A DNA stretch of 64,000 bases from a virus: the IMG/VR virus record IMGVR_UViG_3300042397_000787; one strand, 5' to 3'. Of the stretch, positions 8,123-55,658 are shown piece after piece. The position numbers were made by a program, and so were the translations under genes. The first letter of the stretch is position 1; the number at the start of each line of letters is the position of its first letter. Under the pieces are notes generated by a model that made no database searches, had not been told where the DNA came from, and worked only from the letters and a program-made list of their open reading frames with translations.

Positions 8123-8467
8123 CTATAGATTAAAATTGATACTCTCTCCGCAGCCGCAGCTACTAGAAGCAAGCGGTGCTTGTATTTCAATGACGCTACC
8201 AATAATATCAACTTTTTTATTAACGGTGCTACCTATAAGATATAGTTCCGACGGTCTATCCAGCCAGAACGTCCAATCATCATACTCTTGTGGAAAGTCA
8301 TCTTCTACGAGTTCGTCAGCACTCTTTACCAAATCCCACTTGTAACTGAACCCGGCACATCCACCTCCTGCGAGAGATAGTCGAACACCTAGTGCGTTAT
8401 TTGAAACTGAGACATTACGAAAATGCTCAAGTGCGGATTCCGTAAACTGTATGCGGTCTTTTATCAT
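8123..8467 (-). CDS. iscA: IscA/HesB family Fe-S cluster carrier
   Basis: GGGCAGFSY and C-terminal SSCGCGES motifs. Confidence 0.9.
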   Translation of the reverse strand: MIKDRIQFTESALEHFRNVSVSNNALGVRLSLAGGGCAGFSYKWDLVKSADELVEDDFPQEYDDWTFWLDRPSELYLIGSTVNKKVDIIGSVIEIQAPLASSSCGCGESINFNL

Positions 8468-8471
8468 CAAA

Positions 8472-9140
8472 CTATTTATTACGACTCGCTTCGAATAAAT
8501 CACGAGTTTCGATAAGTTTTTTGGCCCAGTTGTCGCGCTTTTCTACAAACACCTGAGGCTCATCGCCATCTACAGCAATCAAGATAACAAGAAAGGGAAC
8601 AGGAATACCAGTTCGTTCTTCATACATGATTGCATATGCAGCGGTCTGCATAAAGTAGGAACTGATATATTCCTTCTTCTTGGGCCGATTAGAAGTCTTA
8701 AAGTCGATTACGGCGCGAATACCATTGTATTCTCCGATACAGTCAACGCGACCAGCCATACGCAGGAAGTCGCTGTATAATGCCAGCTCTTGGCAGTGAA
8801 TGTTATCGATAGGTTCAAGAATTGACTTAAACTTAGTAAACATTTCCTTGTCGAGCAAGGACGCTCTCACGCTATCAAAATCGACTTCTTCATTCTTTAA
8901 ATATGCTTCGGTAAGTGTGTGTATTTTAGTACCGCGAGTAGAAGCCTGCTTAGAAATGCGGTCGGCTTCTTCTTCACCAACGCGCTCACGCCACTTGTTG
9001 ATGCCATCTTTATTCAGAACACCGAGAACAGTGGTAGCAGAGGGATATCCAACACCCGAGGCATTGACATAAACTCTGCTACCATCTTCTCTTGTTTCAT
9101 CTTGGGCGAAATCAGTATAATCATAGATCGTTTTAAACAT
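8472..9140 (-). CDS. PD-(D/E)XK exonuclease
   Basis: YPSATTVL, RGTKIH, AGRVDCI, IDFKTS, Q..AYA. Confidence 0.88.
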   Translation of the reverse strand: MFKTIYDYTDFAQDETREDGSRVYVNASGVGYPSATTVLGVLNKDGINKWRERVGEEEADRISKQASTRGTKIHTLTEAYLKNEEVDFDSVRASLLDKEMFTKFKSILEPIDNIHCQELALYSDFLRMAGRVDCIGEYNGIRAVIDFKTSNRPKKKEYISSYFMQTAAYAIMYEERTGIPVPFLVILIAVDGDEPQVFVEKRDNWAKKLIETRDLFEASRNK

Positions 9141-10061: not shown

Positions 10062-10610
10062 TTATTGTGTATCATCTTTCCACCAGCAAGGAATTTCACG
10101 ATTTTTCCATTTTGCCATAGTTTTTTTTGCGCCGATATAATAGTTACGATATGATTGTAAGGAATCACCTTGTACCTTGTATTCATCTGGCATCGCAGGC
10201 GTCGGCTGTGTTAGATAACTTACCGGAATATTTTTGGGTGGCTTGCGAAGAAAATAAACTAATCGGTCGGTCGCATGAATTTTACCATACCGATAAGTGT
10301 ATTCTGCCAGTAGGGATTGGAATAGACATACAAGCCAGTTATAATTATTGTTAGACTGGCGAACCCAGATAGCACTCGGATGATTGATATGTGTTGCTTT
10401 GTAGAGAACTGTTTCAAGGGTGTTGTCTTCCATACGCCAACGCTTGATTGAACGGCCATTCGCAGTTTTGTCTAGGTATTGTTCACCGTCGATTACGCGA
10501 TGTGCAGTAGATAACAGTTGTGCATATTCTAAGATCATCTTAACGACATGCTTGTCATTATGATATTCAGCACATTTGGAAACGTCACGATCCAAATAAA
10601 AGATATTCAT
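10062..10610 (-). CDS. Pyrimidine-dimer DNA glycosylase / DenV-like protein
   Basis: MNIFYLD, DKHVVKMILEYAQLLSTAH, HINHPS..W, EYTYRYGKIH, YRNYY. Confidence 0.8.
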   Translation of the reverse strand: MNIFYLDRDVSKCAEYHNDKHVVKMILEYAQLLSTAHRVIDGEQYLDKTANGRSIKRWRMEDNTLETVLYKATHINHPSAIWVRQSNNNYNWLVCLFQSLLAEYTYRYGKIHATDRLVYFLRKPPKNIPVSYLTQPTPAMPDEYKVQGDSLQSYRNYYIGAKKTMAKWKNREIPCWWKDDTQ

Positions 10611-10616
10611 GATATA

Positions 10617-10886
10617 TTAACTTTCTTCGATAGATTCACGTATGCAGCGTATATGCTCTTTTGCTACACTTGATATTATATCAGATTCCCTCGCAATGTC
10701 AAGACATTCTATAACTTCAATTGGGTCCATTTCTAATAAATCGTCCATCATGTTTCTTTCTGGTGTAACTCCGAAAGCATTGACGCAAAATAAAACAAGC
10801 TCCACATCGGCATCCGTATATAACGGTATGCGATAGCGTCTAGGTTCCTTACGAAATCTATCTGGAAACTGGAGGATGTTATTCAT
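10617..10886 (-). CDS. Hypothetical protein
   Basis: ORF in operon orientation. Confidence 0.6.
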   Translation of the reverse strand: MNNILQFPDRFRKEPRRYRIPLYTDADVELVLFCVNAFGVTPERNMMDDLLEMDPIEVIECLDIARESDIISSVAKEHIRCIRESIEES

Positions 10887-10897
10887 GTTAATATTTA

Positions 10898-12331
10898 TTA
10901 GGAAAAGACTTTTACCATGTATTTCGCCTCGAAATCATCCGCGTCTTTGAAGTTATTCACCATGGGCATACCCTTGATATTAAGACTAGTATTCAATAGC
11001 ATTGGACAGCCGGTTTCTTCATACCACCTACTAAGAAGTTCATACAGTCCAGAGTGTTGCTCTTTTGTCACAGTTTGGACGCGACTTGTACCATCAGCAT
11101 GGACAATAGCAGGAAACTGATCAGGATATTTACATCTTGAAGTATATTGCATATAAGGGGAGTCTTCCCATGACATCTCAAAGTAGTCTCTCGCATGTTC
11201 TGCCAAAATAACTGGAGCGAATGGCCGAAATTTTTGACGCTTTTTAATGGCATTTACTTTATCCTTAATGTCATGTCCTCTTGGATCAGCTAGAAGGCTG
11301 CGATTACCTAATGCTCTAGGACCAAATTCAGCTTGACCATTTGCAACTCCTACTATACTAGCCTTATGCAATTCTGTCAAGAGTTTTTCTACTGGATATT
11401 CTCCTCCCATATCTGCACCTAGATATGGACCCTTCCAGTTCAATTTTTGTCTGTTGTTAGCTGCAATCGCACCCAAAGAACTACCCGAATCTCCAGGATT
11501 AGGCATAATCCAGACATTATCAAAATACTTTCGTGCAATATGATTTGCACTACAGTTTAACGCACAACCACCCATAAGAACGAGATTATTTTGTCCGGGG
11601 TCTTTCATTTTTGCTCGTATCAGAAGTTTTTCGAATTCTTCTTCATAGACTTTTTGAGTTGCCGCAGCGACACTATAAATGTCCAGGTCTCCATCATCTG
11701 GCCTCCACCAGCGACATCCACGATGCAGGTTCTCAGATTTCCAAAGATTTTTTACTTCATCATAATACTTTCCAGGATCACCATATGCTACCATTCCCAT
11801 TAAGATATATTCGTCTTCATTGGGCTTTAACCCAATTCTATCTGTCATAGCAGAATAGAACAGGCCCAAAGACTTGGGATAGTCCATAGACCATTTCTTT
11901 TTGAGTTTACTACCAGAACATTTCCAGATTGATGCAGTATCGAATTCCCCAATAGCATCAATAACAAGAGCGGTTGCATCATCATATGGCGAAGTGTAAA
12001 AGCCAGCAGCGGCATGTGACTCGTGGTGATAAGCAAACTCTACCGGAATATCTTTTAGACCAAAATGTTCAAGATACTGCCTGACACTAAATCGAATCAG
12101 TCCCTGACCGGCTAACAGTCTTCTCATTGCCCTAAGTTTAGGCTTTTCATACCAGTGAATTTTTTCTGGTTTGCCAAATTTCAAAGCAGCATGAATTAAA
12201 TCATCATTTAAGTCTTTGTCGTTTTTGATACCAGAATATCTTTCTGCATGGGAAGCAAACAAAATTTCATTGCCAGAAACAACAGTCAAAGACGCATCGT
12301 GTGCGGCCGCAGATATACCCCATTCAATCAT
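10898..12331 (-). CDS. Carbamoyltransferase (NodU/CmcH family)
   Basis: HDAS, HHESHAA, DAIGE, GGCALN, EFGPRALGNRS, RPFAP, LLNTSLN. Confidence 0.95.
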   Translation of the reverse strand: MIEWGISAAAHDASLTVVSGNEILFASHAERYSGIKNDKDLNDDLIHAALKFGKPEKIHWYEKPKLRAMRRLLAGQGLIRFSVRQYLEHFGLKDIPVEFAYHHESHAAAGFYTSPYDDATALVIDAIGEFDTASIWKCSGSKLKKKWSMDYPKSLGLFYSAMTDRIGLKPNEDEYILMGMVAYGDPGKYYDEVKNLWKSENLHRGCRWWRPDDGDLDIYSVAAATQKVYEEEFEKLLIRAKMKDPGQNNLVLMGGCALNCSANHIARKYFDNVWIMPNPGDSGSSLGAIAANNRQKLNWKGPYLGADMGGEYPVEKLLTELHKASIVGVANGQAEFGPRALGNRSLLADPRGHDIKDKVNAIKKRQKFRPFAPVILAEHARDYFEMSWEDSPYMQYTSRCKYPDQFPAIVHADGTSRVQTVTKEQHSGLYELLSRWYEETGCPMLLNTSLNIKGMPMVNNFKDADDFEAKYMVKVFS

Positions 12332-12339
12332 AAAGAATC

Positions 12340-13215
12340 CTATTTTGGTTTTATCAAATAATCATATATTTCGGTAGCAAACATTTTGTGGGCTTCGATG
12401 CCAGCATGTCCATAAGCACATCTTTCACCCTTATATTTATACATTGAGCCAACAGGTACAAAATTCAATCTATCAAATGTATCTTTATAAATCGTTTTTA
12501 GACGTTTAATTAAATCAATGTCTGTTTTTGTTTTTAAGAATTTTAAATTAGAATGCTGACTAGATGGATCATCAGGATAAGGAATGTAGGGATGCGTTTC
12601 TATAAAAATATGTGGTATATTTTCTTGGTGTAAAGCAGTTTGTATTGACCGTAAAATAATCATATTGTTCAGGGCCACTTGATATTCGTTATTAATTTGT
12701 ATCAGTGCATCATATAAGGTCTCTAGTTTATTTAATGTATGTCTATGAGACATAATAAAGTTGTGTAAATTACCTTCTTCATCTATGATCATATCTCTTA
12801 CAGGAGATGTCGCTCCTATAAATACCACATCTCCATCTTTGTAATAACCATTTGCTATATCCGACAGTATATTAAACAATATCTTTTTTTGAGAAGTGCC
12901 TGGTTCAGCAAAGTTCACATATTCCGTGGATAACATATCACTAAGATGTTTTGCGTATGAATATTGATTGCACAATTTCACATATCGGTCATTAGCTGAT
13001 TCCGAACACCTTGGATCTAACATGGCATAAACTTTACTGTATAGTTGTGCGTTCCAGTTGCTGCGCCCATATCTCATTTTCAAAGTATTGACTTCTTTGA
13101 GCGACATATCGAATATATCCGCATCTGCCAATTCGGACCCAGCAGTATTGGAACAGCCATAAAAAATTGTTCTTTTTATGTTGCATTCTTCAATATTATG
13201 GTATCGGATCGACAC
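12340..13215 (-). CDS. SGNH/GDSL-like hydrolase or acyltransferase
   Basis: FYGCSNTAG, NFAEPGTS, C-terminal GHAGIEAH. Confidence 0.5.
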   Translation of the reverse strand: MSIRYHNIEECNIKRTIFYGCSNTAGSELADADIFDMSLKEVNTLKMRYGRSNWNAQLYSKVYAMLDPRCSESANDRYVKLCNQYSYAKHLSDMLSTEYVNFAEPGTSQKKILFNILSDIANGYYKDGDVVFIGATSPVRDMIIDEEGNLHNFIMSHRHTLNKLETLYDALIQINNEYQVALNNMIILRSIQTALHQENIPHIFIETHPYIPYPDDPSSQHSNLKFLKTKTDIDLIKRLKTIYKDTFDRLNFVPVGSMYKYKGERCAYGHAGIEAHKMFATEIYDYLIKPK

Positions 13216-14329
13216 TTAGCTCATTCCACAAGTTATAAAATTTTATGTCTTTTTTAAGAAATTTTGTTTCTAATTCTTCAATCCAAGAATCTAATTGTAT
13301 CGTTTCATCTCTAACATTTGTAACTTCATTGTCGTCAACATGAGATAGAAGACTTTCTCTGATATTTACCAATTGAATGATATCAGAAGAAAAGTAGGAT
13401 TCATATTTGTCGATGCATATATCTAACTGATCTATTGCTAATTTTTTTATTTCAGGCGTAGCAGCAAAAATATTAAGTGAACGAGGAGAAGTCAATAGCT
13501 GAAATGTAATACCGTCATAATAGTCGCTGTAGTAAACATAATCACAGAATTCCACTAAACTTAAAGCACTGGGCAAACAATAGGTTGCATGAATAGTAAG
13601 TTTACTATCACTAAAATTTCTAATATATTTTACATTTTCCTCAAATGCATTCCATTTTGCACCATGTCTAATATATTCGAATTTGTCCTTAATAGTTTCA
13701 AAGCTAACTGCCCACTTAACTTTTTTTCCTAGAGTTAATAGCTTTTTAGCAACGTCATTGTTTTTAACATCTACCGCCATATTAGATAGGACATAGTAAA
13801 ACTTGTCAGGTAAAATATCAATTAAATCCAAATTTTGCTTCTGTAGTAGAGGCTCACCCCCTAGAAGTTGCACACTAAAAACGTCATCTGCATTCTGTTT
13901 TATAAACTCAAGCAATTGAGCATCGGTATCTTTCGAGTTCTTTTCAAAATTGTCTTGGAGTATAGATGCCCACTTAGAACTAAATTGTGAGTTACAGTAA
14001 ATACAACTTAGGTTACATGTGTTGTCCCATCTTAGATCCAGGGATGTCAATTGAAAATCTGTTGGTTCAGAGAAGTTTTTAGGATTAGTAATCTTTCGTT
14101 GTGATATACTTCCTCCTTTTTCTGCCAAATCACAATAAGAACAATAACTTTCTGGTTGGCCAAGTAGAATATTTTCACGAATTTTATTAGCCTTTTTCCC
14201 TAGTAACATCTCAGAAGGATTGTCTTTTTTTATGTTACCCAAAGGAAAAGAGCCAGCACAACAGAACTTAATATCTCCGTTGGTGTTGAGAAATAATCCA
14301 GTAAAAGGATATTCACAGAATTTATTCAT
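13196..14329 (-). CDS. Radical SAM protein with N-terminal SPASM/twitch-like Cys domain
   Basis: CNLSCIYC, GGEPL; N-terminal C..P...CC...CxxC. Confidence 0.92.
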   Translation of the reverse strand: MNKFCEYPFTGLFLNTNGDIKFCCAGSFPLGNIKKDNPSEMLLGKKANKIRENILLGQPESYCSYCDLAEKGGSISQRKITNPKNFSEPTDFQLTSLDLRWDNTCNLSCIYCNSQFSSKWASILQDNFEKNSKDTDAQLLEFIKQNADDVFSVQLLGGEPLLQKQNLDLIDILPDKFYYVLSNMAVDVKNNDVAKKLLTLGKKVKWAVSFETIKDKFEYIRHGAKWNAFEENVKYIRNFSDSKLTIHATYCLPSALSLVEFCDYVYYSDYYDGITFQLLTSPRSLNIFAATPEIKKLAIDQLDICIDKYESYFSSDIIQLVNIRESLLSHVDDNEVTNVRDETIQLDSWIEELETKFLKKDIKFYNLWNELSVDPIP

Positions 14330-15191
14330 TAATCAAATACTTATATAGTTCTTCTGCCATCACTTGGTGTTCAGAAATTTTAGGATGACCGAAACCACAA
14401 TATTTTGGATGAGGCTCTAATGCATTCCAATTTCTACCATATTCATAACTCTTAAAATAATAATCAAGTTTCATGATGGAGGGCAAATCTTTACTTTTTT
14501 CTGCTATACGATACATATTTGATTGATAGAAAGTCGGATCTGAAATCCCTTTGAAAATATTATTGTAGTTAGTGGTGACATGAAAACTTTTTACTCTACC
14601 ATTTGTTCGATGGTAGAGATTATCAATATATTGAATTTGCCAGTAGGCATCCCAGCATATTTGATATGTGTTTCCCACGGTAGCTACATAATCTTTGTGA
14701 AATTTCGGCGAGGGCCAATCCGCATGATATGACAATAACGGCTTCTTCGTTATTCCATTCTCATTTAACCAAAACCATCTATTAGCACTTGTTAATCCAA
14801 ATAGAACTAAGTCTTTATCTCCGATTTTCCCAGTGGCCAGGTCTTCCTCATAGCAGTATATTGAATACTCCATGCCTGCTCCACCAAGCCCTCTGTTTAT
14901 CCAAGGAACGCCAAACTTATCTGCCAGCCAACGCGGCCATGCCACTTCTTTGGTACGGCGTATCTGTTCGCCCCAATCCCATCTGCCGTTCTCATCGAAT
15001 AAAGTTTTATCGGAACAATACTTCGGATTATAATATTTTGTATTCCACTCAGGACAGTATAATCCGCCCAAGTCAATTTTTGTTTTATCAACTTCGTATT
15101 CCGTTAACGCATCAACAAAAACATGATCTAGCGTTTCATCACCGGCAGTCATACTACAACCATAAGCAATGATTCTATCGAATTCAATCAT
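14322..15191 (-). CDS. SGNH/GDSL-like hydrolase or acyltransferase
   Basis: AYGCSMTAG, NRGLGG, GHPKISEH. Confidence 0.5.
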   Translation of the reverse strand: MIEFDRIIAYGCSMTAGDETLDHVFVDALTEYEVDKTKIDLGGLYCPEWNTKYYNPKYCSDKTLFDENGRWDWGEQIRRTKEVAWPRWLADKFGVPWINRGLGGAGMEYSIYCYEEDLATGKIGDKDLVLFGLTSANRWFWLNENGITKKPLLSYHADWPSPKFHKDYVATVGNTYQICWDAYWQIQYIDNLYHRTNGRVKSFHVTTNYNNIFKGISDPTFYQSNMYRIAEKSKDLPSIMKLDYYFKSYEYGRNWNALEPHPKYCGFGHPKISEHQVMAEELYKYLINE

Positions 15192-15291
15192 AAATGAACG
15201 GGTCCTGCTTTCGGATCTCAGCCAGTCTCTTTTTATACTTTTGCTTTAGAACATATGAATTATATAATCTTTGAATCCATTTAAACAACAT
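15184..15291 (-). CDS. 35-aa basic peptide ending DPFIYD (not in ORF track)
   Basis: MLFKWIQRLYNSYVLKQKYKKRLAEIRKQDPFIYD*; overlaps both neighbours, suggesting translational coupling. Confidence 0.65.
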   Translation of the reverse strand: MLFKWIQRLYNSYVLKQKYKKRLAEIRKQDPFIYD

Positions 15292-16453
15292 AAATTTCGT
15301 CCCTATTATTATTTTTACCACATGCTTCTGAGCAAACATAAAGTTTACCGTCAGAGCAGCTTTTCTTCTTCCATGTATCTTTCAGATTTTGATAGTAAAG
15401 ACCATCGACAATTGTTTGAAAGTTGCTAGTATTTAGATTGATGGAGGAAGTTCTTGTTTGAGAATAATGCCATTTTTTAAATTGATATTCATCAATTCTA
15501 TGATAGCTATTATTAATCGCACTATCAAACCAACAACATGGTAGTAAATCGCCACTAGAATTGACATAAAATGTTTTCTTGTTATTAGAATTGCATTTAG
15601 GTTCGATTTCAGTATGCTCTAGTTCACTGGTATATTCTTTTGGACTTCTGAATATCTTTTTAAAATCTTCATGTTCGTCTTCTATGCTCATAAAGATATC
15701 TCTTACATCAACAGCCGTTTTATCCATTCGCTCTACATCATAGTTTCTAAAAACGATGTTTCTTTCGTTGTCATATTGAAAAGACACTCTATATTTTTCA
15801 GATGGTGCCTGAATTGCATATTCAAACTTACCGGTAGCATCATGAACTGGAATACTACTAACACTCTCAAATCCTAGCGGTCGTTTCGCAATAAATTTTG
15901 CTCCAACACTCTCGGCCAAACTTTTAGCGTAATTAACCTGATGTTCATTGTGGGCAAATACTAAAAATTCCCAGACAATATTCGCACCAGTGGTAGTAGC
16001 GGCAATAAAATTATTAAATGCCGTATCCCATTTGACATTTCTACGATATATATGGTTGGTGTCTTCAAGCCCATCTATACTAAAGACGATATCTCCCTTG
16101 TATAATTCTGGATTGAATAACGCGCCCATTTTTTGCCAGAAATCTTCATTTCTAGTGCCACCGTTTGTGTGAAGTCTTATCGCTGATTTAGGCGACACTT
16201 CTCGAATATAGGAAACAATTTCGTGTAGATCCCTACACAATGAGGGATCACCAGAACTTCCGCATAAAATCCACACTTCAACTTTTTCACATACTTCCGG
16301 CGTGAACCAAGTTTTAAATTTTTCTAGACTAATCTGAGATAATTCAATCGTGCTTTTAGTTTTCCCACCCATCCAGTTACGTGTGCATCCGGGGCATGCC
16401 GCATTACAGTTATTGGTGAGTTCGATGTGTAACTCGTAAATATTAGGAATCAT
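15281..16453 (-). CDS. Radical SAM protein with C-terminal SPASM-like domain
   Basis: HIELTNNCNAACPGC, FSIDGL, LPCC...C...C. Confidence 0.92.
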   Translation of the reverse strand: MIPNIYELHIELTNNCNAACPGCTRNWMGGKTKSTIELSQISLEKFKTWFTPEVCEKVEVWILCGSSGDPSLCRDLHEIVSYIREVSPKSAIRLHTNGGTRNEDFWQKMGALFNPELYKGDIVFSIDGLEDTNHIYRRNVKWDTAFNNFIAATTTGANIVWEFLVFAHNEHQVNYAKSLAESVGAKFIAKRPLGFESVSSIPVHDATGKFEYAIQAPSEKYRVSFQYDNERNIVFRNYDVERMDKTAVDVRDIFMSIEDEHEDFKKIFRSPKEYTSELEHTEIEPKCNSNNKKTFYVNSSGDLLPCCWFDSAINNSYHRIDEYQFKKWHYSQTRTSSINLNTSNFQTIVDGLYYQNLKDTWKKKSCSDGKLYVCSEACGKNNNRDEIYVV

Positions 16454-17694
16454 CTATATGCTTCCAATTTTTTTGCCCAGTCTGGAAAGTATTCAGAAAA
16501 CTTTTGATTTTTATACTTATCATGTTTTTCTGAAATAACATAGAAATTGCTGAAATGTCTTTCCGAAGGCCTCTCTGACATTAAATGCGTAGTCACATTT
16601 CTTAGCGTATCAAAATTCCATTCATTAGCCTCTTTATATTCAGAAATATAAGATGTGATTTTTTGGATTAGCTCTAGCTTAATTTCTCTGGGCAAATTGG
16701 TTATCTTATAATGATCTGGCTTGTATAACATGTTATACCATATACCAGAATTCACTCCATATCTATTACGTATGAATCTATCAAACTCTGTGATGTGGTC
16801 AATATTAGCTATGCTTATAGTATAACAAAAACTAATCTTTATTGACGGATGTTTCCGACTTAACTCATGAAACTTGTCAATATTTGCAAGAACCACATCC
16901 CATTTTGCAGGATGTCTCATGTATTCAAATACCTGTTCTATTCCATCGATACTTAGTGCAATATCAGAGGTTTGAAACTGAGTGAAAACATCAATCTGTT
17001 TTTGACTAGGAAAAATTGTGCCATTTGTATTACAATGCAGGTACTGGGACTTACTTACCCCAGCTTCAATACACTTATGTAACATTTTCCATGGCTTAGT
17101 AATTAATAACGGTTCACCGCCATAAAAGTCAATTCTTTTAGATTGTAGAATCCATTGTTCAAATTCTTCCCACAATAATGGATTGTCATCCGAGTAACTT
17201 ATTCTCGCGGGCTCGAAGCGGGCAAGAAATTTTCTTTTATCTGCATATTCTTTTAAATATACATCATATTCTTCTGTTTGCCAAGCACTACTGCTATTTG
17301 AGTTGCACGTTCTACACCTTAAATTGCATGTATTACCAAACTTCATGTCAATATAGAACGGCGTTTCTGGGCCCATAACATCAGGATAATCCTGTTCATA
17401 TTTTTCCCACAAATGTTGCTCTCTCAGGCGCTTACTAATTTTTCCTCCAGCATTTTCTTCTTCCCAACAAGCAATACAATTGGGATGCTGAATGCCAGCA
17501 TCTAATGCTTCCAAAATTTCTCGTCTGTGATTGCTTTTCCAAAACTGACTAGGCTTATGCGTATTGAACCGCATCTCCTTGCCATCATCGTCTAATAATA
17601 CGTCTCTTGCCATGCAGCATGTTTTAGCATTGCCCATAGTCTCGGTTGCAATTCCATATTTGGCAGTCAGACAAGTTAATTTTTTGGTAGACAT
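16450..17694 (-). CDS. Radical SAM protein (twitch-type N-terminal Cys domain)
   Basis: CNLRCRTC, YGGEPL, NTNG, SIDG. Confidence 0.92.
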   Translation of the reverse strand: MSTKKLTCLTAKYGIATETMGNAKTCCMARDVLLDDDGKEMRFNTHKPSQFWKSNHRREILEALDAGIQHPNCIACWEEENAGGKISKRLREQHLWEKYEQDYPDVMGPETPFYIDMKFGNTCNLRCRTCNSNSSSAWQTEEYDVYLKEYADKRKFLARFEPARISYSDDNPLLWEEFEQWILQSKRIDFYGGEPLLITKPWKMLHKCIEAGVSKSQYLHCNTNGTIFPSQKQIDVFTQFQTSDIALSIDGIEQVFEYMRHPAKWDVVLANIDKFHELSRKHPSIKISFCYTISIANIDHITEFDRFIRNRYGVNSGIWYNMLYKPDHYKITNLPREIKLELIQKITSYISEYKEANEWNFDTLRNVTTHLMSERPSERHFSNFYVISEKHDKYKNQKFSEYFPDWAKKLEAYR

Positions 17695-18887
17695 TTTTCA
17701 GCCCAAGGATAGGTTTCAAACACATTCTGTTTTCTGATCTTATCAAGTAACTGTTGTTTCATAACAAAATTATTTTGAATAATAGGATTATGTAGATTAT
17801 CGGTTCTGGATTCCAGGTATTTGATGATAAATTCTACTGCTTGTTTATTTAAAGCATTAGTATTTTTCTGAACCTCAAAATATTCCCGCAATTCGTTCAA
17901 TCTAAGATTATAATTATCTTCGGGCATAACATCAGGCTGCAAAAAATCTGGACTATTAACAGGAATAACGGAACAGTGAATTCCAACCGTATCAAAGAAA
18001 CGAATCAAGTCTGCCATTGTATCCAAAGATAAGTTTTGTAATGTTGTGCTTATGGTAGCATGAATGTTTTGATGTTCTTGCATAATGGTTTTGTAAGTCA
18101 ATAAGTTCTTTTCGATTTTTTTCCACCTACCAGGAAATCTAATATATTCAAACGTTGACTTATAACCATCAATACTAAGGCCGAGATGAACTTCTCTAAA
18201 CTGTTTCCAGTAGTCGATAAATTCATACGGGTTGTTCATTCCGTTGGTATTATAGTGTAGCGCAATGTTTTTTGCCGCACCAGTCTCGCATAAAAATTGT
18301 AGTAGCTTAAGGTTTTCATCAATGATTAGCGGTTCACCGCCTATCAAATAAATTTGTTTGATAGTATGAATATGTTGTGACAATACCTCATTGATATCTA
18401 CGGCATCAATCCACTTTGTATCCGACCAACTAGACTGATAATATTGTTTTGCTTCCGGGTGTTCATCTACTTCCTTACGAATCAGAGAACTACTGAACGG
18501 CCCACACATTCTGCATTTAAGATTGCACTTGGCATCCAAATCAAATTCAACTTTTACAATACCAATAGGCTCTGGACTTTTTTCAGCCACAATCCTATCA
18601 TATTCTTTACGAAAGACTGAATTCGCATAATCTCTAAAACTCTTATTACCAGAGTCTTCGATATTCCAGCATCGTGAGCAAAGTTCTGGCTTATTCCCCT
18701 TTAACATTTCATCTCGCAGATACGACATGGTTTTTGTTTTCAGTAATGTATTCACATCATAGTTTTCTTTGTCTTTGATGTTTTCTTGAACTTGTTTTGA
18801 GCCAATCGCATTGCAACAAGGCCTAAATTCCCCGTGTGAGCCAATGCTCAAATTCATCCAGGGATATACGCAAATAGTATCTGACAT
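17676..18887 (-). CDS. Radical SAM protein (twitch-type N-terminal Cys domain)
   Basis: CVYPW..RPCC, CNLKCRMC, GGEPL, SIDG. Confidence 0.92.
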   Translation of the reverse strand: MSDTICVYPWMNLSIGSHGEFRPCCNAIGSKQVQENIKDKENYDVNTLLKTKTMSYLRDEMLKGNKPELCSRCWNIEDSGNKSFRDYANSVFRKEYDRIVAEKSPEPIGIVKVEFDLDAKCNLKCRMCGPFSSSLIRKEVDEHPEAKQYYQSSWSDTKWIDAVDINEVLSQHIHTIKQIYLIGGEPLIIDENLKLLQFLCETGAAKNIALHYNTNGMNNPYEFIDYWKQFREVHLGLSIDGYKSTFEYIRFPGRWKKIEKNLLTYKTIMQEHQNIHATISTTLQNLSLDTMADLIRFFDTVGIHCSVIPVNSPDFLQPDVMPEDNYNLRLNELREYFEVQKNTNALNKQAVEFIIKYLESRTDNLHNPIIQNNFVMKQQLLDKIRKQNVFETYPWAEKCLPKN

Positions 18888-20137
18888 TATTGTACCTCGT
18901 TTACGTGATTTCTATTATTACCCAATTCACCCTGATCCAGTTTATTGAATTCTAAACCACAACAAGAACTGCATTGATGACTGCGCATCGAACTACCACG
19001 CTCGAAACTCATCGGTAGATATCTTTGAAAATATGCAGTATTAATAATTTCTTCTAAAGTATGCTTATGAAGATCCAGTGAGTCCATACCACCATTAAGT
19101 TCGATCATTTTAAGCGAGTTATCATTAGGATTTGACCATTGCGCACCAAATCTCCATGGTTCTCCGCCTAGAAAACAACAAGGGAAAACATGACCTGTGG
19201 CAGACAAGAACACTTCGTTGTTTTTCTGGTGTTCATTAATCTTTGCTCGACACATAATACCCAAAGAGTTGTGTTTAATCTTAATTGTTTCGTTGGAGTC
19301 GGGATCATGATTTACTAAAAACTCTTCTGTGTTTTCAGGCATCAATCTACCAAATTCTTCATTTGTGATATATTGTGGAATAAGATTCTTTATTGCTTTT
19401 GCAAAAACAACATCATTTTGATGCTTTAGTCTCTCTTCTTCCGGTTGCTTGATGTAGTATGAGGAACCATCTGGATTTCTAACTCTGTAGTACCCTCTTC
19501 CGGCTGCATCATATCCTTGCCATCTAGTTGTTCTTTTAATATTGAAAGTTCTAAAATTCAATTCTTTTGCGATGGCCTTGGCTTCGTCAATTTGATGCTC
19601 ATTAAAATCAAACGCGATAAAGTCCCATTTAGCTATGCCGCCTGCGGCAGTAAATGCTTTCATATTAGCATGAATTTTAGCAAAATTGGTATTTCTTCTG
19701 TATAGGTGATTTGTGTCCCATAAGCCATCAACAGAAAAAGTTACACCATCATCTCGTTGATTTTCTCCGTTGAGAATTTGACCTAGTTCTTTCCACCAAC
19801 CTTCCGATCTAGCACTAGCATTTGTGTGCATTACTAATGAGAGATATGGGTTATTTTCTCGCAAATACTTGAATATTGGCAAAGTATCTTTAGCAGTAAT
19901 AGGATCTCCATAATTCCCACATGCATACACCCGTCTAAGTTGTGAAACAAACGGAATAGGAAACCATTCTTTGAATTGTTCTAGAGAAATATCTGTTAGA
20001 TTTAGAAGAGGATTGATTTCTTTACCCTGATTGATATAACGAGGACACATAGGACATCCTGCATTACATTTATTAGATAATTCAATGTGCATCGCAGTAA
20101 TATTGCGCCACGATTTGTATAGTGGTTCAACTTGCAT
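18887..20137 (-). CDS. Radical SAM protein with C-terminal SPASM-like domain
   Basis: HIELSNKCNAGCPMC, CGNYGDP, FSVDGL, FPCC. Confidence 0.92.
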   Translation of the reverse strand: MQVEPLYKSWRNITAMHIELSNKCNAGCPMCPRYINQGKEINPLLNLTDISLEQFKEWFPIPFVSQLRRVYACGNYGDPITAKDTLPIFKYLRENNPYLSLVMHTNASARSEGWWKELGQILNGENQRDDGVTFSVDGLWDTNHLYRRNTNFAKIHANMKAFTAAGGIAKWDFIAFDFNEHQIDEAKAIAKELNFRTFNIKRTTRWQGYDAAGRGYYRVRNPDGSSYYIKQPEEERLKHQNDVVFAKAIKNLIPQYITNEEFGRLMPENTEEFLVNHDPDSNETIKIKHNSLGIMCRAKINEHQKNNEVFLSATGHVFPCCFLGGEPWRFGAQWSNPNDNSLKMIELNGGMDSLDLHKHTLEEIINTAYFQRYLPMSFERGSSMRSHQCSSCCGLEFNKLDQGELGNNRNHVNEVQ

Positions 20138-21533
20138 TTTCAGTTAATTCCTTGCACATGTGGTAAAAATCCTTGTATTCAGGAAAAGTTTCTATTAGAT
20201 TAAGCCCAGGAGAACGTTTGTCATATTCGGAAAAGAACTTATAGAAGTCCTTGCGACCGGTTTCGATTAATTCAGGAGTAATCCTAGGTCCACCAGTCAC
20301 AAAGTAATTTCTTACTCGCTTTAGCTTTTCCCATTCATGTTCATTGAATCCAAACTCCATTCCGTATGGAGTAATACGCTGCTTGATGAAATCAAGGTCC
20401 TCATCGATATATGATACCCATTCTGGCGGAAGAAGATTAATCATCCAATGTGGTGGTTCTTTTAGATACGGCGTATCAAATCCAATACGCTCTTTACCCC
20501 ACTTATCGCGAAGTTCTAATATCTTTTCTAAGAATGGACGGAAAGAAGCAACACACAGAATGTTGTAGGTACACATAAAACTAATGTTTGCTTTTGGAAC
20601 AATTCTTAGATATGTTTCTACGTTCTGCAAGAAAAGATCCTGATCCAGACCTCTGCGCATATATTCTGCCTTCGGTCCCCACGATTCTAGACTTGTGTAA
20701 AGTTTGAAATCCTTAATTTTCTTATTTTCGATCATCGACTTTACTGTTTCAGCAAACTTTGTCACTCGATTATTCGAAACGCCAAGATTACTATTCAAAT
20801 TCAATTCAAGATGCTGAGTACCATCACCCTCTTCAATCAATTTAAACAACTTCATTGTGTTTGAGTTGATAAGTGCTTCGCCGCCCGTCAGGCGAAGAAC
20901 ACGGAGATCCTTCTTTAGGTCAGGCCACCACTTCCAAAATGCCTCGATGTAGGGATTGTATTCGTCATCTCTATACACCTTACTAGTTTCTAGATATTCA
21001 ATCCCATACTGATTATAACTAATGTCATAATTACCATGCTTGCGGATTTCATCTTCCCATAGTGAAGATGCTTGTGGACAGCAATAACCACACTTAAAAT
21101 TACAACCTGCACCAAAACTAACTTCAAGGAAGTAAGGATTGTAGTCTGCATCCCATGCCGTATTCTTAATCATTTCAGTTTCAGCGGCGGCATCTATCCA
21201 ATGACTTGCATTATGAAACATTCTATCGCTAAAATTTTCGCCAGGAAGATTTTCTACGTTCCAGCAGTAGTAACATTCTTCTGGACGTCCGCCCTCAAGC
21301 ATAATTTTACGCTGTTCTTTCTTCCACTTCGTATTATGAAGTGCAGAAGGATTTTCAGCAATTTCTTCTAAAGGAATATGACGAGGGCGAGGATGATAAC
21401 AACTGTGATTGTCGCCCATATGAAGATACAGAGTCTCGTGGCGCCATTTTTGCAGACAAAATCCATTACCCACTGTATTCAGTGTATCTCGGACTTTTTT
21501 TACCTTATTAATATATTCTAAATTATCACTCAT
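20127..21533 (-). CDS. Radical SAM protein (twitch domain)
   Basis: FCLQKW..HSCYHP, CNFKCGYC, TGGEA. Confidence 0.92.
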   Translation of the reverse strand: MSDNLEYINKVKKVRDTLNTVGNGFCLQKWRHETLYLHMGDNHSCYHPRPRHIPLEEIAENPSALHNTKWKKEQRKIMLEGGRPEECYYCWNVENLPGENFSDRMFHNASHWIDAAAETEMIKNTAWDADYNPYFLEVSFGAGCNFKCGYCCPQASSLWEDEIRKHGNYDISYNQYGIEYLETSKVYRDDEYNPYIEAFWKWWPDLKKDLRVLRLTGGEALINSNTMKLFKLIEEGDGTQHLELNLNSNLGVSNNRVTKFAETVKSMIENKKIKDFKLYTSLESWGPKAEYMRRGLDQDLFLQNVETYLRIVPKANISFMCTYNILCVASFRPFLEKILELRDKWGKERIGFDTPYLKEPPHWMINLLPPEWVSYIDEDLDFIKQRITPYGMEFGFNEHEWEKLKRVRNYFVTGGPRITPELIETGRKDFYKFFSEYDKRSPGLNLIETFPEYKDFYHMCKELTENAS

Positions 21534-22962
21534 TAATCAGGCCTTCGCATTCTTCAATAAATTCTATCATTTCTGGAAATGTTTCTTTGAGGTTAGTCTT
21601 ACGCCGCTTATCATGTTCTCTAAAATGCATAGTGAAGTTTTTCTTATGAAGAATTTCTTCATCTTTAGGCATTGGTTCAACTGCCCAGTCATAAAGGCGC
21701 TTTACTTTGTCAATTTCATAATCTTTGAAACCCTTAAATCGATTTGATACGGTCTCTTTGTTTTGCTCCATAAATTCGATACTATTTAGCAAAGGCTGCA
21801 ACATCTCTTTAGATGCCAACTTTAGACTCAGCCACTTAGGATCAGTAAGCATAGGAGTATCAAACCAAACCAACTGTCTATCCGTATTATACTCTTGACG
21901 CAATCTTAAAATATTTTGAAAGTATGTCATCCAATTCGGTAAACATAGAATGTTACATGTCACAATAAAGGTTAGAGAATGCTTTTCACCTTCACTCAAA
22001 AATTGTGTGATGTTTTTATAAAGAACATCAAAATCCATACCTGTCCGAATATACTCTGCCTGTTTTCCCCAACTATCGAGACTACAGAAGAGCATGAAGT
22101 GATCGATTGCATCCTGATCTGTGATTTCTTTCAAGTCATCCATAAACTTTTGCCACTGTCCTTTTGGAGGGCAACAATTGCTAGTAATACTTAGCGTCAA
22201 ATCTGGTTTTGGATTTTTCTTGACATGGTCAAAAATCTTAAAAGTATTCTTATCCATCAAAGGCTCGCCGCCTGTCATACGAAATGTCTTTAACTTGTCA
22301 TATACAGTAGGAAACCACTCCCAGAATGCAACAAGATATGGATTTACAGGAGAATTATCCGGCACCCAACCCTGTTCTTTCATCCAACCATCGTCATTAT
22401 GAGTTCTATCGAAAAGCCGATATGGACCATGCTCTTTAATTTCTTTATGCCACTCTGTAGACAAATGAGGGGAACAATATGTGCATTTTAAATTGCAGGC
22501 CTGATTAAAGTTGACTTCCAAATATTTGGGGGCAGGATTTCCTTCAAACCCAACTGCTAACGCTTCATCGATAATACCCGGCGAGTTAACATCAAAACTG
22601 CGATACGCTCTATCGCTCATATTACCAGTATCTTCGATATCCCAACAGAAAGAGCATTCCGACGGTCTTTCGCCTAGTAACATCTTCTTTCGCTGTTCTT
22701 TCTTGTATTTTGTGTTATGTAAAGCACCTGGATCTGCCGCAAGTTCCTCTAAAGGAACCTTATGGGTTCTAGGATGATAGCAACTATGAGTTCTGCCAGT
22801 AGGAATATGAATGCTGACATTAAACCACTTTGCAAGACAAAAGGAAGGACTTACTTTGTTTAAGCCTTCCAGCATATCCTTAGTGTTGTCAAAGTAAACA
22901 CTCTTGTATGCTCCATCTAGATCGGCAGTTACTTCATCACCGCGTTGATTTTCATCGTTCAT
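21526..22962 (-). CDS. Radical SAM protein (twitch domain)
   Basis: FCLAKW..HSCYHP, CNLKCTYC, TGGEPL. Confidence 0.92.
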   Translation of the reverse strand: MNDENQRGDEVTADLDGAYKSVYFDNTKDMLEGLNKVSPSFCLAKWFNVSIHIPTGRTHSCYHPRTHKVPLEELAADPGALHNTKYKKEQRKKMLLGERPSECSFCWDIEDTGNMSDRAYRSFDVNSPGIIDEALAVGFEGNPAPKYLEVNFNQACNLKCTYCSPHLSTEWHKEIKEHGPYRLFDRTHNDDGWMKEQGWVPDNSPVNPYLVAFWEWFPTVYDKLKTFRMTGGEPLMDKNTFKIFDHVKKNPKPDLTLSITSNCCPPKGQWQKFMDDLKEITDQDAIDHFMLFCSLDSWGKQAEYIRTGMDFDVLYKNITQFLSEGEKHSLTFIVTCNILCLPNWMTYFQNILRLRQEYNTDRQLVWFDTPMLTDPKWLSLKLASKEMLQPLLNSIEFMEQNKETVSNRFKGFKDYEIDKVKRLYDWAVEPMPKDEEILHKKNFTMHFREHDKRRKTNLKETFPEMIEFIEECEGLINE

Positions 22963-24296
22963 AGGGTATTACACCATTCTAAAAATTCTTTGAATTCTGG
23001 AAATACTTCCACTAGGTTGCTTTTGCTTCGTCTATCGTATTCTGGGAAAAACTTAGCAAAATCTCGTCTGGCATTTAGACGATACGTATCATCAATTGCA
23101 TGTTCATCGTTATAAAAGTAATCTCGAATACGTAACATCTTTTGACGTTCTATATCAGTAAACCATTCAGACTCCTGAATGAATTTCAAGTCAGAATCGA
23201 TATACTTACCGAAATCTTTAGTTAGAATATTGATTGTCCAGTGTGGCGGTTCTTTAAGATGTGGAATATCAACAATAATTCTATCTTTGCCCCATTTTTT
23301 TCTAAGTTCCACAATATAATCTAAGAAGTCTCTGAAATACGGTACTACAAGATTATTATACGTTACCATAAAGGACATGTAAGCAGTTGGGACCAATTCT
23401 AGAACGGTGTCAACATTCTTCTTAAACAACTCGTAGTCCAGACCACGCCGAATGTATTCAGCTTGTTTACCGGTGCATTCAATACTGGTAAAACAACGAA
23501 AATTCTTAATCTTATTGTTATCTATAAGTTCTCGAACAGTATTACTTACTTCAACAACTTTTCGATTGGTTACACCGAGATTGGTATTAATCTGCAACAT
23601 AAGGTCAGAATTACCCTCGTCACGCAACGTCTCTAACAGACGATATGTATTGGTGGTCATCAGAGGTTCACCACCAGTAATACGGAAAATCTTCAACTCT
23701 TTTTTTAGTTCTGGCCACCATTTCCAAAATGCTTCCACATAGGGATTATATTCTTTCTCAGAATATATTTTCTTTCCTCTAGTTCCATATGGACTGTCTG
23801 TTAGATCATAGTCACCAAATTCTTCAAGTTCTTGTTCCCACATAGAAGAAAAAGATGCAGTGCAATATCCACACTTGAAATTACACGCATTACTAAAACT
23901 AATTTCCATGTTGTATGGATTTACGTTCTGATCCCATGGAGTATTGCGTAGAAGTTCGGTTTCTTCATTAAGATCAAAAATAGGATTAATTTTATCAATA
24001 TTCTTCAATACGCGGTCGCTGACCTTACCAATCTTTTCAATATTCCAACAATATGAACAACCAGGCGGTTTACCACCAGAAAGCATATACTTTCTAGTGA
24101 ATTTCTCATAAAGTGTGTTGTGAAGAGCGGCTGGATCTTCCTCAATTTCTTCCAGCGGAATAATTCTAGGACTAGGATGATGGCAGCTATGCTTGTCACC
24201 CGAATGCAGATACAGCGCAAGCCATCTCCACTTCTGTGGACAAAATCCCTCGCCTACAGAATTTAGTGTGGTTAAAGCATCATCTATTTCACTCAT
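22959..24296 (-). CDS. Radical SAM protein (twitch domain)
   Basis: FCPQKW..HSCHHP, CNFKCGYC, TGGEPL. Confidence 0.92.
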   Translation of the reverse strand: MSEIDDALTTLNSVGEGFCPQKWRWLALYLHSGDKHSCHHPSPRIIPLEEIEEDPAALHNTLYEKFTRKYMLSGGKPPGCSYCWNIEKIGKVSDRVLKNIDKINPIFDLNEETELLRNTPWDQNVNPYNMEISFSNACNFKCGYCTASFSSMWEQELEEFGDYDLTDSPYGTRGKKIYSEKEYNPYVEAFWKWWPELKKELKIFRITGGEPLMTTNTYRLLETLRDEGNSDLMLQINTNLGVTNRKVVEVSNTVRELIDNNKIKNFRCFTSIECTGKQAEYIRRGLDYELFKKNVDTVLELVPTAYMSFMVTYNNLVVPYFRDFLDYIVELRKKWGKDRIIVDIPHLKEPPHWTINILTKDFGKYIDSDLKFIQESEWFTDIERQKMLRIRDYFYNDEHAIDDTYRLNARRDFAKFFPEYDRRSKSNLVEVFPEFKEFLEWCNTL

Positions 24297-24691
24297 CTAC
24301 GCATCCTTGAGATTTCTTCCATCTGATCTTGATTAATTACTGGTACTGCATTAGATTTATGCATCGTGGCAATACCCCTGATCAGAGTACCAGTATATTC
24401 ATTAGGCTTCTTAGCAAACGTCATACCACCGCTATCTACAGATTTATAACGTTCGCGATGATCGGATTTATACGCTGCTGGCATGGGAGTGCCACGCAGC
24501 TTAGGCTTATACTTACCTTGACGGTATTGCACATATTCGTCAAAGGTCTTAGTCGAAGAACCAAGACGTTTCATCTGCTTATTGTAGTCTACCCAGTCCT
24601 GAGCATACTTACCAGTGATTCCCTTATTTACAGTCTTTCTATTTTTGGTATTTGTTGTAGTATAAGCTGGGCCCAACAGATGCATTGACAT
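24293..24691 (-). CDS. Conserved phage hypothetical protein
   Basis: GAGGAG RBS before MSMHLLG; C-terminal YTG..I.GIATMHKSNAVPV motif seen in T4-like phages. Confidence 0.7.
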   Translation of the reverse strand: MSMHLLGPAYTTTNTKNRKTVNKGITGKYAQDWVDYNKQMKRLGSSTKTFDEYVQYRQGKYKPKLRGTPMPAAYKSDHRERYKSVDSGGMTFAKKPNEYTGTLIRGIATMHKSNAVPVINQDQMEEISRMRR

Positions 24692-24755
24692 AATAATCTC
24701 CTCAAGACTTTTACAATACAACATATAGCCAAGATTGTCAATAGAAAAATAATGG

Positions 24756-24785
24756 TTGACATTTGGTCGCGAATCGTCTATAACT
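24756..24785 (+). promoter_or_regulatory. Early promoter with GANTC spacer (plus strand; back-to-back with a minus-strand TTGACA at ~24741)
   Basis: TTGACA-TTTGGTCGC-GAATC-GTC-TATAAC. Confidence 0.75.
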
Positions 24786-24797
24786 AGATTATAAGTT

Positions 24798-25001
24798 ATG
24801 GAGATTGTGATGATTCTTGAGATATCTAGAAGTGAAGAGACCCTGCTTAAAGAGTTGGGTGTCACATGGAACGGTTGGCAGTATGAACATGCCGAGTTTC
24901 TTGAAATTAATTTTGAACTAGAAGCGAATGGTATTCCTACCTATTCGTCTTTTGAAGAATATCTTGAAGGCCGTGTGGCATATAAAAGGAAGGTTGCATA
25001 A
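24798..25001 (+). CDS. Hypothetical early protein (inverted relative to neighbours)
   Basis: Directly downstream of the early promoter. Confidence 0.6.
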   Translation: MEIVMILEISRSEETLLKELGVTWNGWQYEHAEFLEINFELEANGIPTYSSFEEYLEGRVAYKRKVA

Positions 25002-25064
25002 TGAACACCGAAGAACTAGAACAACACTTCCTTCAGATGGAGAAGGAACTATTCGAACAAGAAG

Positions 25065-35726: not shown

Positions 35727-35757
35727 AACATCTCCTTATTCCACCAATATAACACTA

Positions 35758-55480: not shown

Positions 55481-55658
55481 CGATGCGCCCAAGACGATGC
55501 AGCAAGTTTGAGATAACCGCTACATCTGGATGAGGTTCTCGTTCGCTATATCCCTCTACTCTCATAATGTCGAGTAGATACGAATGCAATGCCCGCTTGA
55601 TGACGGGAATATCGGTGGGGGCAAACGCGCCGCCCTTAGCTTCTTTTACCATTGTCAA
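55473..55658 (-). CDS. Hypothetical protein
   Basis: Coupled ORF. Confidence 0.5.
   Translation of the reverse strand: MTMVKEAKGGAFAPTDIPVIKRALHSYLLDIMRVEGYSEREPHPDVAVISNLLHRLGRIDG

Follow-up and report, generated by a model that had tools for sequence, protein, structure and literature searches.

A phage operon of eight radical SAM genes with a carbamoyltransferase-micropeptide pair, and its possible part in tailoring a sugar-bearing metabolite

What could a phage make with eight radical S-adenosylmethionine (rSAM) enzymes and a carbamoyltransferase (CT) encoded in a single run of genes? The question is raised by positions 10898-24691, minus strand, of a DNA stretch of 64,000 nucleotides from the IMG/VR virus record IMGVR_UViG_3300042397_000787, hereafter called the window. 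The run is an auxiliary biosynthetic gene cluster of a phage, is made up of known superfamilies and includes a newly recognised pair of a CT and a micropeptide of 35 amino acids. The reading favoured here, held tentatively and at a little less than an even chance, is that the cluster carries out an early, cytoplasmic tailoring of a sugar-bearing metabolite which ends in O-carbamoylation.

The thirteen genes of the run form one translationally coupled operon, tightly packed with overlaps of 1-20 nt or gaps of 8-11 nt, in the order (5' to 3') g12, g11, g10, g09, g08, g07, g06, g05, the open reading frame (ORF) of 35 amino acids, g04, g03, g02 and g01 (Table 1). They encode eight rSAM enzymes, two paralogous SGNH-fold enzymes, one CT, the micropeptide and the small protein g12. 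An earlier note, made by a model from the sequence, had named eleven of these ORFs, all of which exist on the minus strand at the coordinates in Table 1, and had omitted the 35-amino-acid ORF, a core part of the cluster. It placed the end of the operon correctly at 24691, but the first gene there encodes a small conserved protein and not an enzyme. The SGNH-like genes and the CT that it described at the end of the run were confirmed, although the SGNH genes are interleaved with the rSAM gene g03.

The product of g01 has the Kae1-like N-terminal domain and the YrdC-like C-terminal domain of the NodU/CmcH/TobZ family (Carbam_trans_N, 127 bits with a cut-off of 24, E 1e-36; Carbam_trans_C, 180 bits with a cut-off of 27, E 4e-53) and matches phrog_1601 over its full length. 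As NodU proper (NF041651) it was rejected, with 144.8 bits of the 1000 required; it is a member of the superfamily, not NodU. Its closest solved relatives are GdmN, NovN and TobZ (PDB, E 1e-36 to 1e-51; TobZ E 3e-36), all of which O-carbamoylate hydroxyls of natural products or sugars. The HxxxH motif and the Asp of the family are present as HHESHA (residues 102-107) and GD (280-281), both conserved in the subfamily and in distant CTs, which by analogy with TobZ/Kae1 we take to be the metal-binding site. The subfamily to which g01 belongs was defined by a score of at least 600 bits on our own profile.

Every locus with a CT of this subfamily encodes a peptide ending in DPFIY(K/D), of 32-36 amino acids (42 in locus L064), usually directly before the CT gene or before a gene of the DUF6071 family. 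In 30 aligned sequences D-P-F-I-Y is invariant and the N-terminal half is variable. A database search with the micropeptide gave 609 clusters, all of 34-35 amino acids among those listed, and one DPFIY micropeptide is listed in 880 collection blocks, mostly from marine samples, and is encoded in marine contigs that carry the wider module described below. In L086, a close relative of the window, the 35-amino-acid frame is kept and the changes are synonymous. Seven CT-less arrays, each with 4-8 rSAM genes (L003, L005, L014, L017, L032, L063, L074), encode no DPFIY peptide, which argues that the micropeptide goes with the CT and not with the rSAM enzymes.

Prediction of the complex of g01 with the peptide gave an ipSAE of 0.61 (best control 0.00), a mark that 58 of 80 solved complexes attain, as do 2 of 110 mismatched pairs. 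The contacts agreed between model runs to at least 97 %, and the partner had a predicted local distance difference test score (pLDDT) of at least 72. The model thus supports binding of the micropeptide to the g01 CT. The peptide tail (residues 26-35) is predicted to lie in the Kae1-like cleft, touching CT residues 10-11, 71-76, 126-127, 157-171 and 202-208, which include the subfamily-invariant H11, D12 and A126; an NLH loop also contacted by the tail is found only in micropeptide-associated CTs. In view of the co-occurrence and the complex model, the micropeptide is read as a subunit of the CT and not as the precursor of a ribosomally synthesised and post-translationally modified peptide (RiPP).

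A comparable arrangement is found in two Bacteroidetes contigs from metagenome-assembled genomes (MAGs), in which an rSAM gene of the N-terminal-twitch type (N_Twi), a CT gene and a gene for a membrane protein of 49 amino acids (DUF5989, ending LAPFIYSLF) follow each other directly. Bacterial DUF5989 proteins beside CTs also have the ending LAPFIYTLF. The DUF5989 proteins and the phage peptide have in common the PFIY tail, a start of the form M-x-F/W-I-K-x-L and the position beside the CT. Homology of the two was considered and is not established: ten micropeptides gave no Pfam match, DUF5989 included, at E up to 10, alignment with DUF5989 by hhalign gave a probability of 15 %, and the micropeptide, unlike DUF5989, has no hydrophobic or transmembrane segment.

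The micropeptide could instead be the substrate or carrier, RiPP- or HypE-like, which would enter the CT with its C-terminal Tyr tail as HypE enters HypF, and which the rSAM enzymes would convert to a cofactor or toxin derived from the peptide, much as in the mycofactocin and PQQ pathways. In HypE the C-terminal Cys is the residue carbamoylated by HypF, and rSAM enzymes act on MftA and PqqA, short peptides in which a C-terminal Tyr is conserved; both precedents count for a peptide scaffold, as do the invariance of the DPFIY tail in the 30 sequences, its modelled position beside the invariant H11/D12 and D125-G128, the RiPP maturases SkfB and CteB among the nearest PDB neighbours of the rSAM enzymes, and the ability of OleD/Gtf-type GT1 glycosyltransferases, one of which is encoded in L086, to glycosylate peptides. 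The co-occurrence expected of a precursor and its maturases fails, however, in the seven CT-less arrays, the peptide tracking the CT and not the rSAM genes. In the saxitoxin cluster, small proteins are taken to aid the carbamoylation of a small molecule (PMC2679770), and the bacterial PFIY-bearing DUF5989 proteins beside CTs are membrane proteins. The micropeptide lacks Cys, and its N-terminal half varies while the enzymes are conserved; Pfam, NCBIfam and PHROGs revealed no RiPP recognition element (RRE)/PqqD-like domain, protease or exporter in the operon, a dedicated remote search for the RRE fold not being part of these scans. A peptide scaffold is therefore considered unlikely. The more specific proposal that the C-terminal Tyr tail of such a carrier would be carbamoylated in the CT cleft, as in HypE/HypF, and then worked on by the rSAM array is a shade more doubtful again. 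If it were true, large phages and some predatory or aquatic bacteria would be the makers of a new class of peptide-anchored cofactor or effector, decorated with sugar and carbamoyl groups, during infection.

Table 1 Genes and other features of the rSAM operon in the window (aa, amino acids)
Feature	Position	Strand	Description
g01	10898..12331	-	NodU/TobZ/GdmN-type O-carbamoyltransferase, 477 aa, micropeptide-associated subfamily
g02	12340..13215	-	SGNH-fold enzyme, 291 aa, paralogue of g04 (25 % identity, E 3e-20), motifs as in g04
g03	13196..14329	-	N-terminal-twitch rSAM, 377 aa; N_Twi_rSAM 203.1 bits; SPASM match at residues 5-67
g04	14322..15191	-	SGNH-fold enzyme, divergent DUF6071, 289 aa; model pLDDT 94.6
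Micropeptide	15184..15291	-	35 aa, ending DPFIYD; overlaps g05 stop and g04 start; predicted CT subunit or substrate
g05	15281..16453	-	rSAM with C-terminal Cys cluster, 390 aa; Radical_SAM E 8e-6; CNAACPGC
g06	16450..17694	-	N-terminal-twitch rSAM, 414 aa; N_Twi_rSAM 291.3 bits
g07	17676..18887	-	N-terminal-twitch rSAM, 403 aa; N_Twi_rSAM 320 bits; model pLDDT 94.5
g08	18887..20137	-	rSAM with C-terminal twitch/SPASM-like Cys motif, 416 aa; Radical_SAM E 5e-5; CNAGCPMC
g09	20127..21533	-	N-terminal-twitch rSAM, 468 aa; N_Twi_rSAM 280.4 bits; CNFKCGYC
g10	21526..22962	-	N-terminal-twitch rSAM, 478 aa; N_Twi_rSAM 312.9 bits; CNLKCTYC
g11	22959..24296	-	N-terminal-twitch rSAM, 445 aa; Radical_SAM E 4.6e-10; CNFKCGYC at residue 138
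g12	24293..24691	-	Basic protein of unknown function, 132 aa, first operon gene; phrog_27048 E 8e-19
Promoter match	24713..24741	-	Sigma-70-like, TTGACA-17-TATTGT, upstream of g12; consensus scan, 10/12 positions

The intact motif that the earlier note had seen in eight rSAM ORFs was found exactly once in each of them (CX3CX2C), and all eight match Pfam Radical_SAM (PF04055, E 4e-10 to 5e-5), five at or above the family cut-off of 29.5 bits and g05, g08 and g10 just below it. With scores above the cut-off of NF033640, N_Twi_rSAM (170 bits, whole protein), g03, g06, g07, g09 and g10 are members of that family (Table 1). The scan covered the seven rSAM proteins other than g11, which was counted as the sixth member for its 49 % identity to g09; g05 (37 bits) and g08 (47 bits) are below the cut-off and do not belong to it. 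The three paralogue groups proposed earlier are real by identity (g09/g10/g11, 34-49 %; g05/g08, 27 %, E 6e-47; g03/g06/g07, 24-27 %), but two of them are one family, NF033640. This is a named sequence family without a known reaction, and membership confers no function on the rSAM enzymes of the window.

In the N-terminal region of about 75 residues of the N_Twi proteins, four Cys (C6, C24, C70 and C73 in g07 numbering; 19, 38, 80 and 83 in g11) are invariant in 64 sequences, and the region aligns to the twitch domain of BtrN and to Pfam SPASM (residues 5-74). The Cys set is a predicted site of a twitch-type auxiliary Fe-S cluster. The proteins g05 and g08 have no N-terminal twitch domain and carry a similar C...CC...CxxC set at the C-terminus, which in g08 consists of C296, CC320-321 and CxxCC389-393 and partly coincides with a SPASM match (E 1e-4, residues 306-392); both proteins fall in almost purely viral clusters among their Atlas neighbours. 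The rSAM profile gave remote core matches only in the PDB (the cyclopropylglycine synthase-type RiPP enzyme 8vpo, SkfB, GDGT-MAS, BlsE, MoaA, viperin), a PDB sequence search with g08 gave none, and Foldseek with the g07 model gave generic rSAM/twitch/SPASM neighbours only, with template modelling (TM) scores of 0.3-0.4, from which no function can be transferred. The earlier premise that SPASM/twitch enzymes modify peptides, proteins or sugars was too general for this operon, fold and sequence searches having given no close characterised relative. An A-type Fe-S carrier (PF01521, E 1e-9) is encoded on the same, minus strand at 8123-8503, 2.4 kb downstream of the operon, and fits the Fe-S supply genes published for rSAM-rich T4-like marine phages (PMC5332604).

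The predicted structure of g04 has the N-terminal Ser nucleophile and the C-terminal His of the SGNH/GDSL fold, and all PDB matches with E < 1e-3 in the top Foldseek list for this model are SGNH/GDSL proteins. G11, S13, R138 and H269 are invariant, and H275 is nearly so, in the 68 sequences of the g04 family. Pfam gave no match by sequence for g02 or g04, neither to SGNH families nor to DUF6071; profile-profile alignment of the g04 family with DUF6071 proteins in hhalign, by which the family was assigned to DUF6071, gave a probability of 98.5 % (E 1.8e-15). A profile search for this family found 692 relatives. DUF6071/SGNH-like genes recur in the module loci described below, and one of them is fused to DUF6492 in L074. 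A second set is present in the window 30 kb from the operon, where three tandem ORFs of 244-260 amino acids (53593-54375, 54758-55492 and 55655-56410, minus strand) match DUF6071/SGNH-like profiles, the first with E 4e-16 and the other two with E 3e-7 and 1e-6.

The combination of an rSAM array, DUF6071 genes, a DPFIY peptide and a CT of the g01 subfamily is a recurrent and widespread module. Arrays of 4-8 N_Twi rSAM paralogues are found in MAG contigs of Haliscomenobacter, Legionellales and Bdellovibrionota, one of them beside the housekeeping gene obg, as well as in IMG/VR contigs of 60-244 kb and in KVP40-like vibriophages. In the window the array is followed by a CT of the g01 subfamily, and so it is in L001, L007-L009, L013, L015, L061-L069, L073 and L075-L083, where L007-L015 are MAG contigs, L061-L073 are IMG/VR contigs of up to 244 kb and L083 is Ralstonia phage RsoM2USA. 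The gene order of the window is kept in RsoM2USA, with one rSAM gene, three DUF6071 genes, a gene for a DPFIYK peptide and one for a CT that shares 49 % identity with g01. Its micropeptide (L083 8026-8148; 125.9 kb region of the record), which is unannotated and ends in RKQDPFIYK, is encoded between RsoM2USA_201 and _200, a short way upstream of _199, the CT gene; _200, _201 and _203 are DUF6071 genes annotated as hypothetical. Pelagibacter phage Mosig EXVC030M carries a DUF6071-like gene and a sugar aminotransferase gene along with rSAM genes and a CT, which unlike that of the window is of another subfamily and without a DPFIY peptide. In both phages the cluster genes are annotated as hypothetical or by generic names. 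No published function, partner set or family was found in the literature for phage rSAM cassettes, nor any paper on N-terminal twitch rSAM enzymes, DUF5989 or DUF6071.

Two further families accompany the module elsewhere. One, of unknown function, occurs in 20 module loci (L007, L009-L011, L013, L015, L061-L066, L071-L082) before the first rSAM gene and after the CT, in forms of about 310 and about 440 amino acids and as domains of proteins of 650-1360 amino acids; it has a YLSYDEP...VDGDN motif, no Pfam or PDB match and no copy in the window. The VDGDN motif might, as a hint from sequence, be the DxD of a GT-A glycosyltransferase. The other is a conserved protein of about 185-225 amino acids encoded directly after the micropeptide in L076-L082 (7107-7680) and also present in L010, which has no Pfam match and no window counterpart.

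The single multi-step pathway assumed in the earlier note gained support from the coupling of the genes, their conservation as a set and purifying selection in relatives. In L086 and L087, which are 92 % identical to the window, 11 of 11 enzyme genes are kept with identical lengths and with ratios of non-synonymous to synonymous substitution rates (dN/dS) of 0.01-0.18; the operon genes are thus under purifying selection in relatives, and the pseudogenisation which the note had named as evidence to the contrary was not seen. It is very unlikely that the rSAM enzymes are independent, acting for instance on different host or phage macromolecules, and merely adjoin an unrelated CT unit with which they share no product. 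The cassette does vary between close phages, L003 having seven rSAM genes alone and L001 six with a CT and a 2-oxoglutarate (2OG) oxygenase, and the CT, peptide and SGNH genes can be absent; translational coupling is nevertheless tight, and the order from rSAM array to CT recurs in many independent lineages, including the N_Twi rSAM/CT/DUF5989 succession of the Bacteroidetes MAGs.

On inspection, no signal peptide or membrane segment was seen in the operon proteins, and the SGNH nucleophile is residue 13, from which the chemistry is taken to be cytoplasmic. Together with this, it is the sugar enzymes beside the modules of relatives that favour a sugar-bearing metabolite. In L086 a GT1 (OleD/EryCIII-like; PDB E 1e-6, TM 0.87 to an Atlas structure) follows directly after the CT. 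In the marine module of L076-L082 the CT is followed by an NDP-sugar 4,6-dehydratase/epimerase (Polysacc_synt_2), a DegT aminotransferase, PIG-L, GFO/IDH/MocA and APS kinase genes, and L074 has a sugar nucleotidyltransferase (CTP_transf_like), a cupin and a methyltransferase of the NDP-sugar C-methyltransferase type (Methyltransf_13/14). An aminotransferase, an epimerase and a methyltransferase are found beside the rSAM genes and CT of Mosig. Among 114 neighbouring proteins of N_Twi_rSAM genes in bacteria, the commonest families are GT2 (six), PhyH (five), further rSAM enzymes and CT (three), and an epimerase and a GDP-mannose dehydratase are also present.

The most likely substrate is a sugar-bearing metabolite, for instance a nucleotide-(amino)sugar or a glycoside derived from such a sugar. 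Each rSAM paralogue would perform one radical C-H functionalisation on the sugar scaffold (oxidation, epimerisation, deoxygenation or C-C/C-X bond formation), and the SGNH-fold enzymes may add or remove an acyl or carbamoyl group. The CT, with the micropeptide tail docked in its Kae1-like cleft, would make carbamoyl-AMP from carbamoyl phosphate and ATP and would O-carbamoylate the pathway product, for which a host envelope glycan, a phage DNA sugar, a virion glycan or a free metabolite are candidate destinations. Of the targets listed in the earlier note (virion proteins or glycans, DNA, a peptide), a sugar-bearing substrate in the cytoplasm is thus preferred and a peptide disfavoured, the sole peptide candidate tracking the CT.

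Several observations weigh against sugar tailoring. Neither a glycosyltransferase nor a sugar-nucleotide enzyme is encoded in the window operon itself, which lacks the GT1 found in the close relative, and in the neighbourhoods taken from MAG and metagenome contigs phage DNA may be mixed with cellular DNA. The PDB neighbours of the rSAM enzymes, all distant, are divided evenly between peptide maturases (SkfB, CteB, anSME) and enzymes acting on nucleotides or sugars (BlsE, viperin, MoaA); there is no characterised N_Twi_rSAM member, nor did fold or sequence search give a close characterised relative. Pfam recognised almost no families among 30 genes interleaved in other arrays. The cassette of L003, a syntenic relative, consists of seven rSAM genes without CT, SGNH gene, peptide or sugar gene, so that rSAM enzymes can act on a substrate not defined by the cassette. 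The early timing is deduced from one sigma-70-like match, and such consensus matches are no commoner than in shuffled sequence.

This match, at the head of the operon, is followed by GAGGAG and the ATG of g12 at 24691, and from it early expression of the operon is predicted. With this start codon, the ORF mechanically listed there as 190 amino acids is really 132 amino acids long, and its stop overlaps the start of g11. Homologues of g12 are found in L001 and L003 (E 1e-55 to 1e-58) and in none of the other modules; g12 was dropped as a candidate substrate protein, being lineage-specific and separated from the array by another gene in relatives. An ORF of about 70 amino acids on the plus strand (24756-25010) diverges from the rSAM operon and is preceded by TTGACA-N9-GAATC-N3-TATAAC; the operon promoter match has no GAATC.

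Next to the operon are genes for a CHASE2 adenylate cyclase, PhoH, a DenV-like protein and a PD-(D/E)XK nuclease. This cyclase and PhoH are also encoded, with gp32 and gp59, in syntenic relatives, and on this gene content the source of the window is a T4-like phage of the pelagimyophage type (PMC7029224), as the earlier attribution to a phage would have it. DNA of the phage was found in 20 metagenome runs from lake water, with no RNA run among those listed. The slot between the cyclase and PhoH genes is a variable cassette. In L001, a syntenic T4-like relative, it holds one SGNH-like gene and six rSAM genes, together with genes for the peptide, a CT and an oxygenase of the Asp/Arg hydroxylase (2OG) type. 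The right border of the cassette is fixed in all three related phages and consists of the gene for the DenV-like protein (10062-10610, minus strand; phrog_624 'DNA binding protein', E 1e-55) and a gene for an 89-amino-acid Cys-containing protein (10617-10886, minus strand). Between the CT gene and the 89-amino-acid gene L086 has the 371-amino-acid OleD/EryCIII-like GT1 (14427-15542); the window has no GT1 there, the two genes being separated by just 11 nt (10886-10898), and the GT1 is thus a presence/absence polymorphism between close phages. As a counterpart of this GT1, the GT-B glycosyltransferase of the window (34036-35118) was considered and found to be unrelated. A nucleotide search of the cluster and a marine module locus in 50,697 phage records gave no match, nor did protein searches with a 789-amino-acid ORF of the window and a marine flank gene.

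That GT-B belongs to a run on the minus strand (33105-36621) with a TET-associated glycosyltransferase (TAGT; PF20691, E 4e-43), a 203-amino-acid protein of unknown function and an NDP-sugar epimerase/dehydratase, and the phage probably glycosylates a modified base in its own DNA. The rSAM operon might extend this system, 9 kb upstream, by decorating the sugar or hydroxymethyl group on the DNA bases. In some phages thymidine hypermodification involves rSAM enzymes, which counts for such a role, as do the sugar enzymes at 33.1-36.6 kb, the position of the operon among replication and repair genes (PhoH, PD-(D/E)XK; gp32 and gp59 in relatives) and the early-type promoter match ahead of it. The TAGT cluster is, however, a separate operon, scans of the rSAM operon gave no hydroxymethylase, kinase or DNA-binding domain, and the module is found in cellular loci too, next to genes of the polysaccharide type; DNA hypermodification by the rSAM operon is accordingly judged improbable. 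Attachment of the product to capsid or fibre proteins, or decoration of a virion glycan, appears just as improbable: one TATAAATA is present about 100 nt upstream of the CT start, but TATAAATA is not enriched in the window (7 found, 4.7 expected), the promoter match at the operon head is sigma-70-like and not late, the structural genes are far away, and in bacteria the module can have no role in virions.

In large aquatic phages, arrays of oxygen-sensitive rSAM enzymes take up 5-14 kb, and some of these phages add their own Fe-S carrier. What is new here is the definition of a module of N-terminal-twitch rSAM paralogues, DUF6071 SGNH-fold enzymes, an overlooked micropeptide and a dedicated CT subfamily, for which the predicted CT-micropeptide complex offers a testable first handle and RsoM2USA and Mosig are cultured systems where the product could be found. 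A product in the form of a modified sugar carried by the host surface, DNA or virions would bear on phage-host recognition and defence evasion in abundant aquatic bacteria. A metabolite that is free or anchored to a peptide would represent a rare instance of secondary metabolism encoded by a phage. In either event NF033640, DUF6071 and the DPFIY peptides, three families so far uncharacterised, would receive a first function.

Among known systems, the pelagimyophages are T4-like phages with curli genes csgF/csgG and variable rSAM cassettes (PMC7029224), and T4-like marine viral genomes have up to 12 rSAM genes together with Fe-S carrier genes (PMC5332604). No family assignment, partner genes or function were given for these cassettes, and freshwater SAR11 myophages were reported to be without rSAM and curli genes (PMC7029224; PMC5332604), whereas the phage of the window is from lake water. 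The saxitoxin cluster combines the O-carbamoyltransferase sxtI, the small proteins sxtJ and sxtK, thought to act with the CT, and the GDSL enzyme sxtL (PMC2679770). It shares with the window the set of a NodU-type CT, a very small protein and an SGNH/GDSL-fold enzyme; unlike it, the window has no SxtJ and a peptide without a transmembrane segment, and the module adds 5-8 rSAM enzymes. SxtK is presumably a DUF5989 member. HypF is a CT of the same YrdC and Kae1 architecture which accepts the C-terminal tail of its partner HypE. Unlike in the HypF-HypE and mycofactocin/PQQ systems, the peptide of the window module is absent where arrays have no CT, and there is no RRE domain and no Cys acceptor. 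In comparison with the tailoring of aminoglycoside and nucleoside antibiotics (TobZ; BtrN, BlsE; the PhyH-type KanJ), no scaffold-forming enzyme such as 2-deoxy-scyllo-inosose synthase was seen here, the rSAM enzymes are only remotely similar and have the twitch domain at the N-terminus, and the setting is a phage. Like the module, these pathways combine a NodU-family CT with twitch rSAM enzymes, the twitch domain of BtrN aligning to the N-terminal domain of the rSAM profile and BlsE to its core, and they have sugar aminotransferases, dehydratases and 2OG oxygenases in common with the relatives of the module.

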